From an uncultured Gammaproteobacteria bacterium (GTDB lineage: Bacteria > Patescibacteriota > Patescibacteriia > SBBC01 > CAIJZX01), in the NCBI GenBank assembly GCA_964383765.1, contig CAYLHT010000003.1:6328-70327 (forward strand): a stretch of DNA of 64,000 nucleotides. Direction: 5' to 3'. The position numbers and the translations under genes are program-made. Positions 9,057-64,000 of this stretch are shown piece after piece (positions within the stretch are counted from its first letter, which is position 1; each line of letters opens with the position of its first letter). A model generated the notes under the pieces. It did not search any database and was not told the origin of the DNA. It saw only the letters and a list, made by a program, of their open reading frames with translations.

Positions 9057-9790
9057 ACCTGCTTGTTGTTATCGAGTAACCGATGCATAATTTTTGTCCA
9101 ATCGAGACGGAACATGATATACGCGATAACGGCAATTCCCCCAATCGTCAGAATTTGAGTGATTAAACCAGTCGTGGTCGCGGCTAAACCAGTGTTCAGT
9201 TGATGCGAAATCACAAAACTCGAATAGGTCACGACCCATCCGGCCATGATTTTTCCGAGCGTTGAGAACAACCACGCCCGCCAGACCGGATACTTGAGCA
9301 TGCCGAGCGGAATCATAATCAAGTCGTCCGGCAACGGGGTCGAGCCAAAAATCAGCAAGAAGATAATGATCATGCCTGGCCGTTCGTGTAAAATGCGTTC
9401 CATCGCGTCATAGGTTTCTGGTTTTTTGCGGTGAAACCAGTTCGACCCCCATCGCCCAACGATATAGCCAAACAACTGACCAATCCCGGCTCCGAGTCCC
9501 ATCAACAAGCCCAACCAAAACGGACTCAATCCCTGAGTTGCGAGGAAAAAGATAATCACCGTATATGGAAGGAAAACTGTGGCACTGGTGCTGCCAATCA
9601 AGGCCGAGAAAAAAGCTCCGGCGTACCCATACCGCAATGCGACATGCGTCCACGAATCGGTCAGATGACCATAGACTGTTGCGATCAGGGGAACACTCGT
9701 GATACCGATGCCGAGCAAAATCAGGATCACGAGCACAGTGATGACCCCCATTTCCGCTCGCCCGAACTTAAATGGTTTGAAATGAATCAT
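9053..9790 (-). CDS. DedA/TVP38-like membrane protein
   Basis: Multi-TM protein with the DedA-like motif region (FGSTPLPDDLIMIPLGMLKYP). Confidence 0.4.
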   Translation of the reverse strand: MIHFKPFKFGRAEMGVITVLVILILLGIGITSVPLIATVYGHLTDSWTHVALRYGYAGAFFSALIGSTSATVFLPYTVIIFFLATQGLSPFWLGLLMGLGAGIGQLFGYIVGRWGSNWFHRKKPETYDAMERILHERPGMIIIFLLIFGSTPLPDDLIMIPLGMLKYPVWRAWLFSTLGKIMAGWVVTYSSFVISHQLNTGLAATTTGLITQILTIGGIAVIAYIMFRLDWTKIMHRLLDNNKQV

Positions 9791-37349: not shown

Positions 37350-37376
37350 AAAAAAGCCGCTAGTTGGACTAGCGGC
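37350..37376 (-). terminator. Rho-independent terminator for the minus-strand HAD gene (hairpin GCCGCTAGT-CCA-ACTAGCGGC + T6 on the minus strand), overlapping its stop codon
   Basis: Inverted repeat plus an A-run on the plus strand. Confidence 0.55.
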
Positions 37377-38182: not shown

Positions 38183-39088
38183 ATGCATACGGTGATCATC
38201 ATCCTCGGCCCAACCGCCTCGGGAAAATCGAAACTCGGTGTTCAGCTCGCCAAGAAATTTCACGGTGTGGTGATTTCAGCCGATTCACGACAGGTGTACC
38301 AGGGCTTGAACATCGGGACTGCTAAAATCACGAGAAAAGAAATGAAAGGTGTCCCCCACTTTTTGTTGGATGTCGCCTCACCGAAACGGCAATATACCGT
38401 GTCACACTACATTCGTGATGTTCAGCGGGTGCTGAAAAAAATTCCTGAATCAACGCCGGTGTTCCTCGTCGGTGGTTCACCGTTTTACATTGACGCGGTT
38501 ACCAAACCTCATTCATTCTCACCTGTCCCACCGAACCCCAAACTAAGACAGCGACTTGAGAAAAAATCCATTGCCCAATTGAGAATCATTCTCAAGAAGC
38601 TTGATCGAGCCCGGGCTCGAAACATTGATTGGAATAATAAACGTCGTGTTATTCGCGCTATTGAGGTTGCCTCCACCTCCCCTCTCCCCTCCTTACCGAA
38701 GGAGGGGCGGCCCCCACACCAAAATTTTGGTGTGGGGGCCGGGGTGGTCCTAAAAATCGGCCTTTCCGTCTCCCGCGCAGAACTCTTCCGGCGGATTGAC
38801 CATCAAATTGATCAACGTCTGCGCCACGGGATGATCAGTGAGGTCCAGCGGCTTCACCGCAAAGGAGTTTCTTGGCGGAGGTTGTCAGCATTCGGTCTTG
38901 AATACCGCGAAATCGTGAAGATGCTCAATGGCCAAGCCTCACGAAAAAATCTGTCGACCCGCATGAAATCAGTTACGCACGATTTTGTCCGCCGCCAAAT
39001 GACCTGGTGGAAACGCGATCAGGATATTCACTGGGTGACTACGCCAAAACAAGCAGAAGTGTTCGTCAGTCGCTGGCTACAATCATAG
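38183..39088 (+). CDS. miaA: tRNA dimethylallyltransferase carrying an in-frame ~80-nt palindromic insertion
   Basis: P-loop ILGPTASGKSKL and DSRQVYQGLNIGTAKIT. The insert at 38671-38760 encodes ASTSPLPSLPKEGRPPHQNFGVGAGV. Confidence 0.85.
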   Translation: MHTVIIILGPTASGKSKLGVQLAKKFHGVVISADSRQVYQGLNIGTAKITRKEMKGVPHFLLDVASPKRQYTVSHYIRDVQRVLKKIPESTPVFLVGGSPFYIDAVTKPHSFSPVPPNPKLRQRLEKKSIAQLRIILKKLDRARARNIDWNNKRRVIRAIEVASTSPLPSLPKEGRPPHQNFGVGAGVVLKIGLSVSRAELFRRIDHQIDQRLRHGMISEVQRLHRKGVSWRRLSAFGLEYREIVKMLNGQASRKNLSTRMKSVTHDFVRRQMTWWKRDQDIHWVTTPKQAEVFVSRWLQS

Positions 39089-51495: not shown

Positions 51496-51812
51496 AGGCA
51501 GGAGGTGCAGTATACCGACCTCATCCAAACTCGCAACCCCCGGGCTTTCCCCAGGGCTGTTTATGGCCTAAAATCAAGTGCGAACTACAAAATCCGGGCA
51601 AGAGCATCTTTATCAACCCACACATATGGCTCGTGCCCAAACCTTTCATTGAGGTCAGTTTTTTGGTAGTTGTGAATCATGTAATCAATGACTCTGCTAG
51701 CATCAAGAGAATCGTCGATGTACCACCGGAAAAATCCACGTTGCCATACATTCCCAGCCGGAAGCGTGCGAGAGAATGTTCCTTTGATTGATCGCATCAA
51801 CTCCCACACCGC

Positions 51813-51834
51813 GGGTGGACTAGAAAGTCCACCC
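51813..51834. repeat. REP hairpin GGGTGGACTAGAAAGTCCACCC (inside the RAYT ORF)
   Basis: Perfect palindrome with a GGACT-AGAA-AGTCC core. Confidence 0.75.
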
Positions 51835-51864
51835 TCTCCCATAAAAATATTCCTCTCCTTGTTA

Positions 51865-51890
51865 GAGCGCGGACTTTCTAGTCCGCGCTC
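51865..51890. repeat. REP hairpin GAGCGCGGACTTTCTAGTCCGCGCTC (inverted partner, inside the RAYT ORF)
   Basis: Same core in the opposite orientation, 30 nt from the first. Confidence 0.75.
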
Positions 51891-52165
51891 AGATACAGAT
51901 GTTGTTACCAGAAGATGAACATGATCTGGCAATATGGCAAAGACCAACGGCGTAAACCCTTTTTGTAGAGATGCCATTCGAATCATAATGTTCAATCGCT
52001 CCGCTAACTTCGGATTGCCAAAAATCGGCCGACGGTTTTTCGTGACGGTAGTGATGAAATACAAATATGGAAAATCGGGGTCGGGCTGGATCATGGATGA
52101 ATGGCCGGCCAAACCACCTAACGCGGACAGTATATCGGATATTTCTTGGTTGTCAATCCTGTGCC

Positions 52166-52191
52166 GAGGGCAGACTGGAAAGTCTGCCCTC
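52166..52191. repeat. REP hairpin GAGGGCAGACTGGAAAGTCTGCCCTC
   Basis: Variant core GACTGGAAAGTC, upstream of the RAYT start. Confidence 0.7.
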
Positions 52192-52217
52192 TACCTCGTG
52201 GTGTTCCCTCTTCGATA

Positions 52218-52243
52218 GAGACCGGACTTTCTAGTCCGGTCTC
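52218..52243. repeat. REP hairpin GAGACCGGACTTTCTAGTCCGGTCTC (inverted partner)
   Basis: Same core in the opposite orientation, forming a second doublet between the RAYT and gyrB. Confidence 0.7.
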
Positions 52244-56013: not shown

Positions 56014-58290
56014 CTAACGAATTTCCGCTCCCTGGTTCATGAGCGCATCCTTGATCTTTTGTTCGAGTTTGTCAACCTCAGCCTTGATCAGGGTGCGATC
56101 GGGGGCCTGATACACAAAGTTTACTCGGTAACTCGTGCGGCCGTCTTTCGTGAAGCGGTCAACAATCTCAAATGTGTCTAATGCTCCAATACCCAACTGC
56201 TTAATCGTGGTTGTAATGTGACCTTCATCATGGGCCCACCAAAAAGCAATGTCGCGTTTCACCGTTGGGTACTTTGATTGCTCACGATAACGAACACCAG
56301 CCGATACAAATTTTTTCGGATCCCATTCCGACATCTCGGCTTGAGCATCAGCCATCAAGGCCGCAATGTCGAACTCACATACCTCAATAGTTCGGCCGCG
56401 AGTTTTTTCTGCAAAATTTGCTTCGAATGGTTTGATAGTAAATTTCAATCGACTCTGGAACTCCTCGATTAGATTCGGTAATTGAGGTTCCGAGTGTTTA
56501 TGCGTTAGACCGATCGCAAGTTTCCATGGCTGTTGCTGGTTAACCGCGCCGGGTAACGTCGGATCGAACACGCGGCCGATTTCAAAAATTTTTGCGTCCT
56601 GGCCGGCATCGGCTTGTCGCGCCAGGACAGCAGCGATCTGCACGTAGACACCTTTGCGTAATTCGTGTTGCGTTTCGTCCAACGGATTCGCCACGTGAAA
56701 GTGCTGACCCTCTTCTTGATGTTCTGCCAGAAATGCATGCGAAATAATTTCCGTGAACCCCATCTCAACCAGAAGATTGCGAAGCTCAAGTTGAAAACGG
56801 ATTTCTTTGGGAACTTCTGTGTGTGATTCAATCGCGGGCATAGACTTCGGAAGATCTTCATATCCAATCATCCGGCCAACTTCGTCCACAATATCTTCGG
56901 GTAATGACACATCCAACCGCCATTCTGGGACTTTCACATTCCATGTCTTGGTACCGGTCATGGCAAAACCTAAGTTCGATAAAATCTTTTTGGCTTTAGC
57001 AGCTGGAACAGTTGTCCCAAGACGTTCGGAAATGTACTGGGGATCAATCACAACGGTTTTGGATTCATGTTTTGTCGATCCAGCTACAGCCGCTCCTTCC
57101 TCAAGGGTCCCGCCGCAAATTTCTGCAATTATGGCCGCGGCAGCCGCACTTGCCTGTAATGGTAAACTCGGCCACAAACCTTTTTCAAAACGTTTTGAGG
57201 CCTCAGACACCAATCCAAGTTGACGCGACGTTCGGCGAATAGAAACAGGGTTGAAGATCGCAGCTTCAAGGTAAATGTCGGTCGTGGTATCGGAAACTTC
57301 GGTGTTTTCGCCGCCCATCACCCCGGCAATCCCGACTGGCCCCTTCCCGTCGGCAATGACAATCATTTCAGCACTGAGTTTCCTGGTTTGACCATCGAGC
57401 GTTTTCAGCGTTTCACCAGTTTTCGCCGCCCGGGCAACTAAGCTGTGGCCGGAAATTTTCCTTGCATCGTAGGCATGCAGCGGCTGGCCGTATTCCAACA
57501 TCACATAATTGGCAACATCAACCACGATGTTGATCGACCGCATTCCGGCTGCTTGCAAGCGTTGGACCATCCATAGCGGCGTGGGTTTCATGGTCACTCC
57601 ACGAATTGTTCGCACGACAAAGAGTGAACAGAGTTTCTGATCATCAGTTCGAACACTGACCGATGTCAGATCTTCTTTTGGCTGCCCCCTCCTCTCCGAG
57701 GAGGGGTGTAGGGGTGGTGGAAGTTTTGGTTGCTGACTGAGGATTGCTCCAATCTCCCAGGCCAATCCCCTCACCCCCATCAAATCCGCCCGGTTGGCTG
57801 GAGTCGTCATATCGAAAACACTGTCATCAAAACCCGTGGCCTGTGCAAACGGCGTGCCAACCTTCAACTTGGGATCGAGCACCATAACCCCGCTGTGATC
57901 CATGCCCAACCCAAGTTCATCCGCCGCGCAAATCATCCCGTTCGATTCCACACCGCGAATGGCGCGCTTCTCAATCGTCAATCCATTAGGCAATTTCGTG
58001 CCAATCAGTGCCACCGCCACTTTCTGCCCGACTTCAATATTCGGCGCGCCGCACACAATTTCCAGTGGTTTGCCTTTAGGTGAAACCATGACATCGGCTA
58101 GCCGAAGTTTATCCGCATTGGGATGAGGTTTGATCGAAATAATTTCACCAACTACAACGTTGTCGAATTGAGCATCATACTCAATCACATCTTCAACATC
58201 GAGTCCGTGCATCAACAAGTGTTCCACTAGTTTCGGGACCGGTGGTAATTTGGGCAAGTAAGTTTTTAGCCAGGCGTAGGAAAGCTTCAT
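56014..58290 (-). CDS. pheT: Phenylalanyl-tRNA synthetase beta subunit carrying an in-frame palindromic insertion
   Basis: N-terminal tRNA-binding domain (…VVGEIISIKPHPNADKLRLADV…), B3/4, B5 and C-terminal domains. The insert at 57680-57735 encodes PKLPPPLHPSSERRGQPKED. Confidence 0.85.
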   Translation of the reverse strand: MKLSYAWLKTYLPKLPPVPKLVEHLLMHGLDVEDVIEYDAQFDNVVVGEIISIKPHPNADKLRLADVMVSPKGKPLEIVCGAPNIEVGQKVAVALIGTKLPNGLTIEKRAIRGVESNGMICAADELGLGMDHSGVMVLDPKLKVGTPFAQATGFDDSVFDMTTPANRADLMGVRGLAWEIGAILSQQPKLPPPLHPSSERRGQPKEDLTSVSVRTDDQKLCSLFVVRTIRGVTMKPTPLWMVQRLQAAGMRSINIVVDVANYVMLEYGQPLHAYDARKISGHSLVARAAKTGETLKTLDGQTRKLSAEMIVIADGKGPVGIAGVMGGENTEVSDTTTDIYLEAAIFNPVSIRRTSRQLGLVSEASKRFEKGLWPSLPLQASAAAAAIIAEICGGTLEEGAAVAGSTKHESKTVVIDPQYISERLGTTVPAAKAKKILSNLGFAMTGTKTWNVKVPEWRLDVSLPEDIVDEVGRMIGYEDLPKSMPAIESHTEVPKEIRFQLELRNLLVEMGFTEIISHAFLAEHQEEGQHFHVANPLDETQHELRKGVYVQIAAVLARQADAGQDAKIFEIGRVFDPTLPGAVNQQQPWKLAIGLTHKHSEPQLPNLIEEFQSRLKFTIKPFEANFAEKTRGRTIEVCEFDIAALMADAQAEMSEWDPKKFVSAGVRYREQSKYPTVKRDIAFWWAHDEGHITTTIKQLGIGALDTFEIVDRFTKDGRTSYRVNFVYQAPDRTLIKAEVDKLEQKIKDALMNQGAEIR

Positions 58291-61076: not shown

Positions 61077-61152
61077 AGGGCTGGTCGCTCAACAGGCTAG
61101 AGCACCGGGCACTAACCCCCGGAGGTAGGAGGTTCGAGTCCTCCCCAGCCCA
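61077..61152 (+). tRNA. Non-canonical tRNA-like gene: acceptor with one bulge, 9-nt D-loop, and an 8-nt anticodon loop CACUAACC (central CUA) on a perfect CCGGG/CCCGG stem
   Basis: Manual cloverleaf; T-arm GGAGG-TTCGAGT-CCTCC; discriminator A. Confidence 0.4.
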
Positions 61153-61157
61153 CAACT

Positions 61158-61186: not shown

Positions 61187-64000
61187 CTATACCGCTCTAA
61201 ATTCGCAAATCTCCCGGTAATCACAAAACTTACACACCATTTCACTCGGTGTAGCTCGGAAATCACCGGAGTGAATTTTTTTGATGGTTGAGCTGACCCA
61301 CTCTTTTGCTGCGGCTGAATCTTTTTCCGTCGGAGTCATTGTCCGCGATTCATTTTCATCAATAAAGTAATACTCGAGCTCCTTCACTTCAGCGTTGAGA
61401 ATATTTGGATCTTGCACGGCCAAGGCGTAAATCAGTAACTGATACTTATCATCTTTTTCGAACTTTTCCTTAACCTTCCCGGTTTTGTAATCCACGATTT
61501 TCACTTCGGGTTTTTCATTGGTTCCACCAATTTGATCAATTCGATCGACAGCTCCATTCACAACAAACTCATCAACTTTCAGATTGAACACTTGTTCTAG
61601 CCTGAGAACATTCGGCATAGCCTTGAGTATTTTCGCATACCACTCGGTCAATGCCTGTTTGCCCTTGTCATAATATTCATTCTTCAATTTCTTTTTCGGA
61701 TACCATTCATCGATAAAGCACCGATCGTACATGGTCAGCAACTCTTCTTCGCTTACAGTTTGACCGTCTTTGGCCCGCTCTTTCCAGAGCGCGAAAAAGT
61801 TGAACAGTGTTTTGTGAACTGACGAACCATACGATAATGCATAGCTCCCCTTCTTCGGAACTTGAAGCACAAAAGCGTAGCGGTATTTCCAGGGACAATC
61901 GTTGTAGGTTGAGAGCTTAGTGAAACTGTATTGTTTTTCACGCGCGACGTACGCAACCACTTCTTTTTTCTGTTTGGGTGTGGGCTTGAATTCACGGGCC
62001 GGTAATGGCAATTTCTTCTCGGCCGCTACGGGTGGTTTCAGTAAACCCAGCTCATACATAAATGCTGACGGTTTTTTCCGACGCTGACCACCGTAATCTT
62101 CGGCTAAGGTAAAAAACACACCGTTCCGAGCCCGCGTGATCGCGACGTACATCAAGCGTCGTTCTTCTTGGACGTGCGCGTCACCCGTGGGTAAGATTTC
62201 ACGTACTAAAGCATCCGGCACTGGAATCGGATCTTTACGATCCATGCCTGGAAAGCGCTGTTCGACAACATTACCGATAAACACGTATGGAAATTCGAGT
62301 CCTTTGGCCGAATGGATCGTCATAATTTTGATTGTGTCCGGCCCGGACGATTCCAGGTCATGCTCAAGTCCGCCGGCGTCACCTGACTCAGTGACATGGT
62401 CAATGTATTTCAGAAACGATTTGACCGTCGCTGGCCGTTCACCTTGTTGAAAAGTTTCAATAACTTTAAAGAGTTGTTTCAAGTAACTTGTCTGTTCATG
62501 CGTTTCCGCGGTTTCTTTTTTCGTAATCTCTTGCAAATATCCAGAATCATTCAGGAATTGGAGGAGTACTTCACCAACAGATTTTGTGTTGGCTAACTCA
62601 GTGTGAGCCTGAATTAGGCTTTTGATTTTTTTGACGCCGGCCCGAGTTGCATCGGAAATAGTGATGTCATCATGCAGCAATTGCTCATACAACGACCGAT
62701 TTTTCTTTTTGGCTTGATAGGAAAGTTCGACGACATCACCGTGATCAATCCCGAACACTGGAATAGCCAGTACGCGATACAACGCCGCGCTTTCGTGATA
62801 ATTATCAAGCAACCGTAAATACGCTAACAGGTCGATCACCAACGGTTTCGTGAATAATCCCCGCGCCGCTAAGAACACGTGCGGCATTCCCCGACGTTCG
62901 AATTCATTGATAAAAATTTGGGCGTGATCGTTGGCACGAACCAAAACACAAAATGAATCCCAACCCACGACGTTCCCCTCCTTGTCTAAGGAGGGGTGGC
63001 CGGAGGCCGGGGTGGTCAGGGCGCGCGATCGAAGTTCCTCAACCTTATCCGCCACCGCGCGTGCCTCCGCCTCTTGTGTATCAACATGAATCACGCCGAT
63101 CTCCCCATTTCCCTCTCGCTGCGCCTTCAATTTCTTCACAATCGCCATGCCGCCGAACAGTTCTTTCTTCGCTTCCAATCGGTCCGGATTATTATGTTGG
63201 ATAAAGGTATGGGCTAAATCGAGAATCGACTGCTTGGTTCGATAGTTTTTCGTGAGTACAATCACTTCGGCGTCGGCAAAGTCCTTTTTGAATTCAAGGA
63301 TATTTGACACAGATGCTCCACGAAACTTATAGATCGATTGGTCATCATCACCGACCACGGTCAAATTGTTCCGTGGCTTGGCTAGACGTTTAATCAACTC
63401 GTACTGCGCCCAGTTCGTGTCTTGGAATTCGTCAACCAGAATGTATTGGAATTGCTGCTGGTATTTTTTGAGAATTGCCGGCCGTTCGCGCAACAAACGT
63501 AACGTGTACAAGATCAGGTCACCAAAGTCTAAGGCGTTGTTATCGAGCAATAATTGATTGTATGTATCATAGGCTTTTGCAAGTTCCATTATTCGGGCGG
63601 CCTCAGCTTTCTCTTCGTCAGTAGTTTTGTTTTTCGACAGAGTCTTTGCGTATTTCAAATATTCCGCCGGTGAAATGTCTTCATCTTTAAGTCGCGAAAA
63701 ATGTTTGACCAGCGCGGTAATGAATTTCGTCGGATTCCCAAGCGGGCGATAATAGTCCAAATCAAAGTCATCAAGATGTTCCCGAATCAATAGCCACTGG
63801 TCGGTTTGGGACAACAACTTGAAGTCATTCGACAACCCAATATCGAGTGCGTGTTCTTTCAGTAACCGCTGTCCAAGGCTGTGAAATGTCATCACCCATA
63901 GATCAACATACCCAAACGGTAAAATCCGCTCGACCCGATCCTGCATTTCACCGGCAGCTTTATTGGTAAACGTCAACGCTAAAATATTATCCGACGGCAC
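61187..64000 (-). CDS. UvrD/PcrA-family ATP-dependent helicase fused to a C-terminal PD-(D/E)XK/Cas4-like nuclease domain with a Cys cluster; N-terminus lies beyond the window end. Carries an in-frame palindromic insertion.
   Basis: Helicase motifs (LALTFTNKAAGEM, ILVDEFQDTN, VVGDDDQSIY, TIHSAKGLEF), a C-terminal ...CKFCDYREIC Fe-S-like cluster, and the insert at 62970-63025. Confidence 0.75.
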   Translation of the reverse strand: MPSDNILALTFTNKAAGEMQDRVERILPFGYVDLWVMTFHSLGQRLLKEHALDIGLSNDFKLLSQTDQWLLIREHLDDFDLDYYRPLGNPTKFITALVKHFSRLKDEDISPAEYLKYAKTLSKNKTTDEEKAEAARIMELAKAYDTYNQLLLDNNALDFGDLILYTLRLLRERPAILKKYQQQFQYILVDEFQDTNWAQYELIKRLAKPRNNLTVVGDDDQSIYKFRGASVSNILEFKKDFADAEVIVLTKNYRTKQSILDLAHTFIQHNNPDRLEAKKELFGGMAIVKKLKAQREGNGEIGVIHVDTQEAEARAVADKVEELRSRALTTPASGHPSLDKEGNVVGWDSFCVLVRANDHAQIFINEFERRGMPHVFLAARGLFTKPLVIDLLAYLRLLDNYHESAALYRVLAIPVFGIDHGDVVELSYQAKKKNRSLYEQLLHDDITISDATRAGVKKIKSLIQAHTELANTKSVGEVLLQFLNDSGYLQEITKKETAETHEQTSYLKQLFKVIETFQQGERPATVKSFLKYIDHVTESGDAGGLEHDLESSGPDTIKIMTIHSAKGLEFPYVFIGNVVEQRFPGMDRKDPIPVPDALVREILPTGDAHVQEERRLMYVAITRARNGVFFTLAEDYGGQRRKKPSAFMYELGLLKPPVAAEKKLPLPAREFKPTPKQKKEVVAYVAREKQYSFTKLSTYNDCPWKYRYAFVLQVPKKGSYALSYGSSVHKTLFNFFALWKERAKDGQTVSEEELLTMYDRCFIDEWYPKKKLKNEYYDKGKQALTEWYAKILKAMPNVLRLEQVFNLKVDEFVVNGAVDRIDQIGGTNEKPEVKIVDYKTGKVKEKFEKDDKYQLLIYALAVQDPNILNAEVKELEYYFIDENESRTMTPTEKDSAAAKEWVSSTIKKIHSGDFRATPSEMVCKFCDYREICEFRAV

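Follow-up and report, generated by a model that had tools for sequence, protein, structure and literature searches.

Putative intrastrand-triplex repeats lying in frame in miaA, pheT and a helicase gene of a Patescibacteria bacterium

Repeat copies and host genes in the window

The window analysed here is the whole 64,000-nt stretch of contig CAYLHT010000003.1 (assembly GCA_964383765.1; positions 6,328 to 70,327), from a bacterium of the Patescibacteria whose closest named relatives are the Candidatus Kerfeldbacteria. It contains three copies of a short repeat made of a hairpin and a G-rich tail, each located inside a protein-coding gene: miaA, coding for tRNA dimethylallyltransferase (38183-39088, plus strand), pheT (56014-58290, minus strand), and a gene for a UvrD-like helicase with a PD-(D/E)XK nuclease domain (61187-64000, minus strand, extending past the window end). 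These host genes had been named in a preliminary description of the same DNA and are supported by Pfam, with IPPT for miaA, B3_4, B5, tRNA_bind and FDX-ACB for pheT, and both domains of the helicase. As a whole, the data presented below are best explained, with a probability of about 0.8, by a dispersed intrastrand-triplex repeat which lies in frame in disordered linkers of essential genes and whose arms are conserved at the DNA level.

The pattern CCCCTCCT-N3-8-AGGAGGGG gave three exact matches in the window (38686-38707, 57686-57706 and 62975-62996, all on the plus strand) vs. none in 100 dinucleotide-preserving shuffles of it, and a relaxed triplex-motif scan of the window found no further strong copy. 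The octamer GGGGTGGT lies 3' of every hairpin (38741-38748, 57711-57718 and 63009-63016) and reproduces, in all three copies, the purine arm AGGAGGGG in mirror order, with T in place of A. The three hairpin and tail copies of the preliminary description were thus recovered, although the mirror relation behind what it called a G-rich tail had been missed. It is this relation which places the element in the class of BoxC (1990s), PIT elements (Hoyne and Maher 2000, 2002) and TM_ECO, all names for the intrastrand-triplex architecture (Holder et al. 2015, PMC4666352). In its class II purine motif, a pyrimidine arm is followed by a purine arm and a reverse-Hoogsteen arm (PMC4666352), and the same order is found on the plus strand in the three window copies: 5'-pyrimidine (Y) arm, purine (R) arm, reverse-Hoogsteen (third-strand) arm-3'. 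The arms are 8-9 nt long, the whole element measures 33-75 nt, and neither of its ends (CCCCTCCT and GGGGTGGT) is the inverted repeat of the other. The tail might alternatively pair with the 5' arm in Watson-Crick fashion, which was considered and rejected: the tail GGGGTGGT is parallel-complementary, not antiparallel, to that arm, and ordinary pairing therefore cannot account for it.

The miaA copy (copy 1, plus strand) is the most elaborate. Its Y arm CCCCTCCT (38686-38693) is followed by a first loop (38694-38699), the R arm AGGAGGGG, which is the Watson-Crick partner of the Y arm (38700-38707), a second loop occupied by the perfect palindrome CGGCCCCCACACCAAAA / TTTTGGTGTGGGGGCCG (38708-38741), and the third-strand arm GGGGTGGT (38741-38748). 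The palindrome corresponds to the additional miaA hairpin reported before, and its 17-nt arms (38708-38724 and 38725-38741) are 100% complementary. Upstream of the Y arm, the C-rich block CACCTCCCC (38674-38682, plus strand) is the complement of a putative third-strand arm, GGGGAGGTG, on the minus strand, and pairs with the downstream tail in the DNA fold of this copy. From its sequence, copy 1 is thus two-sided, CACCTCCCC complementing a candidate third-strand arm for the opposite strand.

Copy 2 (57686-57718, plus strand, antisense to pheT) is the most compact, with the Y arm at 57686-57693, the loop CTCCG, the R arm at 57699-57706, the second loop TGTA and the third-strand arm at 57711-57718; it codes for about PPPLHPSSERRG. 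As for copy 3 (62975-63016, plus strand, antisense to the helicase gene), it consists of the Y arm (62975-62982), the loop TGTCTA, the R arm (62989-62996), a second loop (62997-63008) holding the mini-hairpin GGCC-GGA-GGCC, and the third-strand arm (63009-63016), and codes for about TTPASGHPSLDKEG. According to the ITxF definition (stem of 6-15 nt, at most one mismatch, loops of 1-6 nt; PMC4666352), the 8-9 nt stems of all copies and the loops of copy 2 (5 and 4 nt) are inside the limits, while the second loops of copies 1 and 3 (33 and 12 nt) are too long for it; in these two copies the second loop folds as its own hairpin, bringing the arms together. DNA folding predicts the hairpins of the three copies, with z-scores of -7.9, -2.1 and -3.2, respectively.

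The copies have the same orientation on the plus strand and lie in either orientation relative to their host gene, one sense and two antisense, as had been stated. Three copies would share an orientation by chance with a probability of 1/4, and one of them is two-sided, so that nothing was drawn from this agreement. Cumulative GC skew drops steadily over positions 1-64000 and most genes are on the minus strand; the window is therefore probably inside one replichore, with the minus strand as the leading strand. This would put all three triplex-forming strands on the leading-strand template, a number of copies too small for interpretation (n = 3).

Encoded segments and their place in the host proteins

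The three open reading frames (ORFs) run through the element without any stop codon, in agreement with the read-through described earlier, and the elements are expected to be translated, giving Pro/Gly/Ser-rich loops. The earlier figure of 17-30 added residues was too high: compared to element-free orthologues, the net gain is about +10 amino acids in MiaA, +5 in PheT and +15 in the helicase. In alignments to solved structures, the MiaA and PheT segments fall in variable linkers (for PheT, the linker before the B3/4 domain). The helicase copy sits in a variable region past the N-terminal helicase domain, and the aligned stretches end on both sides of its segment. In the AlphaFold model of MiaA, where the element codes for residues ~164-189, residues 165-188 form a coil between a helix (153-164) and a strand (189-194), and the predicted local distance difference test score is below 50 at residues 170-186; the MiaA segment is accordingly predicted to be a disordered linker.

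Concerning the composition of the element, most copies have four to five of their six reading frames open, vs. about three by a rough calculation of our own for random sequence. The excess is only modest, and this stop-poor composition helps tolerance without being decisive.

Distribution among genomes and viral contigs

The exact pattern, including the tail, contains 23 specified bases, and was searched for in one-genome-per-species contigs (genome set) and in IMG/VR contigs (viral set). At least 120 loci were found in the genome set, vs. about three expected from our own calculation with uniform composition, and at least 120 in the viral set, where some contigs have five copies in 10 kb. Among the matches listed are Acidobacteriota, Bacteroidota, Proteobacteria, Chlamydiota, Dehalococcoidia, Nitrospinota, many Patescibacteria and one Bathyarchaeia record. 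With such a spread over many phyla and phage contigs, the element is neither lineage-specific nor of the Rickettsia type. BoxC-type copies (CCCTCTCCC..GGGAGAGGG..GGGTGAGGG) were found in the same fetched loci.

In-frame copies are also present in genes of other genomes, in other phyla as well. The host genes code for topoisomerase I in Nomurabacteria, a beta-CASP RNase in Magasanikbacteria, ATP synthase gamma in Saccharibacteria, and further for AspRS, an aldehyde dehydrogenase, an Orn/DAP decarboxylase, an MmeI-type enzyme and an RlmI-like methyltransferase; in most of them, Pfam host domains flank the element on both sides. The MmeI-type gene is a restriction-modification ORF of 1148 amino acids (locus L109, 281-3724), in which the element lies in frame within the methyltransferase domain, adjoining an inserted DUF559 domain.

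Inverted pairs and tandem arrays of the element occur in the genome loci. In a metagenome-assembled genome of Thiomargarita sp. (L105, 7128-7322), at least four head-to-tail units form a tandem array with a 41-nt period, with further dispersed copies within 8 kb. Two IMG/VR contigs, L130 and L137, each have five near-identical copies in about 10 kb, on the same strand and mostly ~25-40 nt from the start codon of an opposite-strand gene. In L137, identity extends about 30 nt beyond the third arm, so that the repeated unit is longer than the triplex core.

Covariation of the arms and structure of the second loop

Hairpins with other homopyrimidine/homopurine arms were collected from the loci of public genomes and inspected for a tail mirroring their own purine arm, the control consisting of an exchange of arms between hairpins of the same length. 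Within 45 nt, a tail perfectly mirroring the arm was found for 42 of the 62 variant-arm hairpins of the genome loci (arm-swap mean 3.3, maximum 9) and, in the independent set of viral loci, for 46 of 58 (arm-swap mean 7.4, maximum 13). The variant pairs of arm and tail include GGGGAGAGGGG with GGGGTGTGGGG, GAGGGGAGGG with GGGTGGGGTG, AGGGGAGG with GGTGGGGT, AAGGGGG with GGGGGTT, and AGGGGGG with GGGGGGT. An A in the purine arm is mirrored by either T or A in the tail, both giving legal triads. Conversely, a non-mirror tail of equal composition (GGTGGGG) was found at 11 viral loci only, ten of them shared with the mirror-tail scan, vs. at least 120 for the mirror tail. The mirror covariation of third arm and hairpin, seen across many phyla and in phage contigs, is comparative evidence that triplex geometry, beyond mere G-richness, is being kept.

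These data bear directly on the possibility that the element is a G-quadruplex former, in which the G runs of the R arm and tail would make a two-tetrad quadruplex and the C-rich arm would merely compete. Four G tracts (GG, GGGG, GGGG and GG, from the purine arm and tail) are indeed present in every window copy, and archaeal repeats with an adjacent C-rich tract switch from a hairpin or triplex to a quadruplex when K+ is added (PMC8044849). A quadruplex, however, needs no mirroring, and yet the A/T positions of the tail mirror those of the R arm and the equal-composition non-mirror tail is rare. Moreover, the architecture is retained in variants whose arms have one G run each (AAGGGGG + GGGGGTT), and the fully complementary Y arm is as strictly conserved as the G arms. 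We consider this explanation quite unlikely.

The length of the second loop is bimodal, with 2-5 nt in 218 of 382 copies and at least 9 nt in 155 of them, i.e. in about 40%, including two of the three window copies. Unlike the 1-6 nt loops of the ITxF definition, these long loops mostly have a hairpin of their own, with a stem of at least 4 bp in 126 of the 155; such a stem keeps the third arm beside the hairpin.

Conservation at the miaA site

The miaA site was compared in seven related lineages, i.e. the window, L001, L004 and L251-L254. The element has the same orientation in all of them. The Y arm begins 10 nt past the Ala codon of the RAIE[IV]A motif in four lineages and 9 nt past it in L254, owing to an additional C; the extra C-rich block shifts this offset in the window, and L251, unmatched by the script, was placed by eye. 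Six of the seven lineages have identical Y and R arms, while both loops are wholly different and third-codon identity between lineages is 0.41-0.42 (25 conserved codons on each side of the site). The R arm is read in all three frames, as KEG, RGG or RRG. The seventh lineage, L001, shows a concerted change of all three arms, to CCCCCCT, AGGGGGG and GGGGGGGT.

Judging from these sequences, the miaA copy is old, being common to seven related lineages at one site. Its arms have remained constant while the frame, loops and synonymous flanks changed, and selection on the peptide cannot therefore account for them. What keeps them acts on the DNA itself, and is either selection for the structure or gene conversion by further copies of the element.

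Selection on the inserted peptide, as a Pro/Gly-rich loop useful to the proteins, would find some support in the recurrence, at this same site, of a similar insert in many orthologues: a PP..RRG..GVV-like segment follows RAIE[IV]A in about half of the aligned MiaA relatives. Against this, the arm nucleotides are identical, including at synonymous positions, across all three frames and in spite of the wholly different loops, whereas the flanking third positions are only ~41% identical; the same DNA is found between genes and in unrelated genes, in both orientations; and AlphaFold gives a disordered coil. The peptide explanation is thus highly improbable.

In L250, which has the closest MiaA (69% identical), miaA lacks the element, and the empty site holds CCCTCCCCT, possibly a remnant of the Y arm. 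The same locus carries a two-sided triplex element with other arms (CCCTCCCCTC/GAGGGGAGGG) at 9102-9181, between convergent thrS and HAD-hydrolase genes; at the equivalent spot of the window, only an ordinary hairpin is present (37356-37376).

Gain and spread of the element

Of the three copies, only that of the helicase gene is clearly recent. In its two closest orthologues (78% and 75% identical), the segment is absent and the protein is 15 residues shorter at precisely this position; the helicase copy therefore represents a recent in-frame gain. As for PheT, the closest listed orthologues (56-63% identical) are without the element, and other orthologues have different elements in the same linker. 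In L249 (6597-6630), by contrast with these, the pheT gene of orthologue P0153 (53% identical) carries the same element as the window (57685-57718), at the same place in the linker, equally oriented and read in the same frame; the arms and the second loop (TGTA) are identical, the first loop differs and the flanks cannot be aligned. The proposal of lineage-specific insertions thus stands clearly for the helicase, but not for the miaA copy, found in seven lineages, nor for the pheT copy.

Multiple dispersed copies, their presence in phage contigs and the presence/absence of the helicase copy between orthologues 78% identical would all suit an RPE-like (Rickettsia palindromic element) or MITE-like (miniature inverted-repeat transposable element) transposon, moved by transposase cut-and-paste, with the in-frame copies as survivors. 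The window also contains a gene for a 175-aa transposase-like protein of the Y1 (HUH) type (51585-52112, minus strand), resembling those associated with repetitive extragenic palindromic (REP) sequences (REP-associated tyrosine transposases, RAYTs). Other observations speak against such a transposon. Direct repeats flanking the copies were not enriched vs. cross-paired controls among 376 copies, and the element ends are not mutual inverted repeats. No match to the Y1 proteins of the window and L004 was obtained by tblastn in 120 genome loci of 8 kb each, and the window Y1 gene is flanked and interrupted by a different hairpin family. In addition, earlier work reported no transposase or integrase near the E. 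coli copies (PMC4666352), and the size of the element and absence of a conserved peptide are unlike those of RPEs (PMC10969869). We therefore regard the transposon as unlikely, though it keeps a real chance. Two candidates were discarded along the same lines: a TTTTGG repeat flanking the pheT copy, taken as a target-site duplication, was dropped for the lack of enrichment in the 376 copies, and a link to the window Y1 transposase was rejected, given the absence of matches in the 120 loci and the association of this gene with another hairpin family.

This Y1 gene is of interest in its own right. It scores best against the NCBIfam model 'REP-associated tyrosine transposase', with 66 bits, in two stretches and below the 80-bit cut-off. 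The hairpin family GAGnnnGGACTTTCTAGTCCnnnCTC, probably the first palindromic family of the preliminary description, forms an inverted pair in frame inside the gene (51813-51890) and a second pair just upstream (52166-52243). The locus resembles a RAYT accompanied by REPIN-like doublets, the RAYT gene having itself been invaded by one of them. L004 has a Y1 homologue, 49% identical, also with a hairpin insert.

A role at the RNA level, by sequestration of the Shine-Dalgarno-like AGGAGG, as a terminator or as an mRNA stabiliser, was considered in view of the AAGGAGG inside the R arm and of the many intergenic phage-contig copies located 10-40 nt from gene ends or starts. Orientation with respect to transcription showed no clear bias, based on crude ORF calls: between co-directional genes, the two orientations numbered 22 vs. 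29 in the genomes and 22 vs. 34 in the viral loci, and intragenic copies comprised 24 sense and 16 antisense. This mixed orientation, also seen in the window, is evidence against an RNA-level role, as is the reported failure of purine-motif triplexes to form in RNA (PMC4666352). The tail, moreover, cannot form Watson-Crick pairs with either arm, PIT elements of E. coli showed neither promoter nor terminator activity (PMC4666352), and an Rfam scan of the whole window at gathering thresholds returned tRNAs only, with no family for the element. An RNA-level role thus appears very unlikely.

Comparison with known repeats

The E. coli relatives are the closest in structure. The single strand of TM_ECO forms a stable triplex, as established by circular dichroism (CD) and nuclear magnetic resonance (NMR), and no link of the E. 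coli elements to promoters, terminators or transposases was found; more genome variation was reported around them (PMC4666352). TM_ECO occurs in 262 proteobacterial genomes, and G/C-rich motifs were found more widely by Holder et al. (PMC4666352). Like BoxC, PIT and TM_ECO, the present element has a class II layout, is G/C-rich, multi-copy, often arranged in inverted pairs, found in either orientation and without a linked transposase. It differs by its 8-nt arms (CCCCTCCT/AGGAGGGG/GGGGTGGT) from TM_ECO, whose arm is the 9-nt CCCTCNCCC, and the window copies do not match the strict TM_ECO/BoxC pattern CCCTCNCCC-N3-6-GGGNGAGGG-N3-GGGNGAGGG. Furthermore, TM_ECO in E. coli MG1655 is 'always located intergenically' (PMC4666352), whereas all three window copies are intragenic and in frame, and the exact-arm type occurs in many phyla and in phage contigs. 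The class is therefore already known, and the window copies differ from its described members by arm sequence, frequent second-loop hairpin and intragenic place.

RPEs, described from Rickettsia, are about 150 bp long and form ten families, each with a conserved encoded peptide (PMC10969869). The likeness to them put forward in the preliminary description holds for behaviour, both being small palindrome-containing repeats found in frame in unrelated housekeeping genes of a reduced genome and tolerated in surface regions. It does not extend to kinship or lineage specificity, the element being only 33-75 nt long, without a conserved reading frame, with a mirror third arm and distributed across phyla and phages. 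With REP/REPIN sequences it shares short hairpin repeats, often in inverted pairs, the absence of target-site duplication and the RAYT-like gene of the window; REPs, however, lack the mirror third arm, and this gene is flanked by the GAGnnnGGACTTTCTAGTCCnnnCTC hairpins, not by the triplex element. Unlike a MITE, the element has no terminal inverted repeats, nor, in the 376 copies, any enrichment of target-site duplications. Repeats of the Methanomicrobiaceae similarly combine a G-rich and an adjacent complementary C-rich tract, which can form a hairpin with an antiparallel G-rich third strand, but their block order is reversed (C-rich 3' of the G runs), they are all intergenic and they were found in one archaeal family (PMC8044849). 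Nothing relevant was found in the literature for the strings CCCCTCCT, AGGAGGGG and AAGGAGGGGT, and a search on cyanobacterial short dispersed repeats brought nothing useful.

A further tRNA-like gene of the window

Apart from the repeats, the window contains a tRNA-like gene (61078-61153; Rfam tRNA, 53.7 bits) adjoining tRNA-Thr(CGT). It has an 8-nt anticodon loop, CACTAACC, for which ARAGORN gives the four-base anticodon 'ctaa', and may represent a suppressor-like tRNA (amber or quadruplet-reading) or else a degenerate gene.

Discussion

Under the intrastrand-triplex reading, the Y arm CCCCTCCT and R arm AGGAGGGG would pair as a hairpin, and the second loop, either 2-5 nt or longer and then provided with a mini-hairpin, would lead to the G/T arm GGGGTGGT. 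In single-stranded DNA, this third arm would fold back antiparallel to the R arm and occupy the major groove of the hairpin through reverse-Hoogsteen G*G:C and T*A:T (or A*A:T) triads. That the window sequence can fold in this way is suggested by analogy with the CD and NMR data on the E. coli relative, and we infer that folding could take place during replication or repair. The arms being almost free of stop-forming triplets, the element would be translated through in permissive linkers; it is not the peptide which is conserved, and the arms would be kept by selection on DNA structure or by gene conversion. As for its spread, a structure-dependent process acting on single-stranded DNA may be envisaged.

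Several points weigh against this reading. The arm-swap control leaves in place the relatedness among copies of one genome, and the loci were picked by one exact arm type, so that variant arms come only from genomes also having that type. Two of the miaA lineages, L004 and L251, have a degenerate third arm, and the identical arms at this site could have arisen by repeated insertion at one exact nucleotide position, a less likely alternative. Finally, the triplex of the E. coli relative was observed on isolated single strands only, and not in duplex DNA or by in vivo dimethyl sulphate (DMS) footprinting (PMC4666352).

A more far-reaching proposal is that the arms are kept by natural selection for their ability to form a triplex in vivo, even within essential coding sequence, the folded single strand being the substrate or guide of a structure-specific DNA transaction; we consider this quite unlikely. 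In one version of it, a hairpin module would insert beside a G-rich run which it can bind as a third strand. The helicase site lends itself to such a speculation: the closest orthologue has, at the empty site, GTT^CGGGGTGATCAG, while the window has GTT followed by the 33-nt hairpin module and CGGGGTGGTCAG, as if the module had landed beside a G run bindable as third strand. Against such a landing, the repeated unit in other genomes includes the third arm and sequence beyond it. If true, the proposal would imply a cross-phylum, phage-borne mobile family recognising its target by Hoogsteen pairing.

Bacterial repeats of the intrastrand-triplex class were first described in the 1990s, with no function, mobilising enzyme or in vivo evidence for the importance of the triplex assigned to them (PMC4666352). 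Their in-frame life inside essential genes contradicts the 'always intergenic' picture obtained from E. coli. With arms identical at an orthologous site whose synonymous surroundings are saturated, selection becomes directly testable. Of the new points of this work, the most useful is that comparative data speak for selection on the three arms. For the candidate-phyla-radiation bacteria, the inserts account for odd Pro/Gly-rich loops in their proteins, which neither annotation nor structural studies should take for functional domains.

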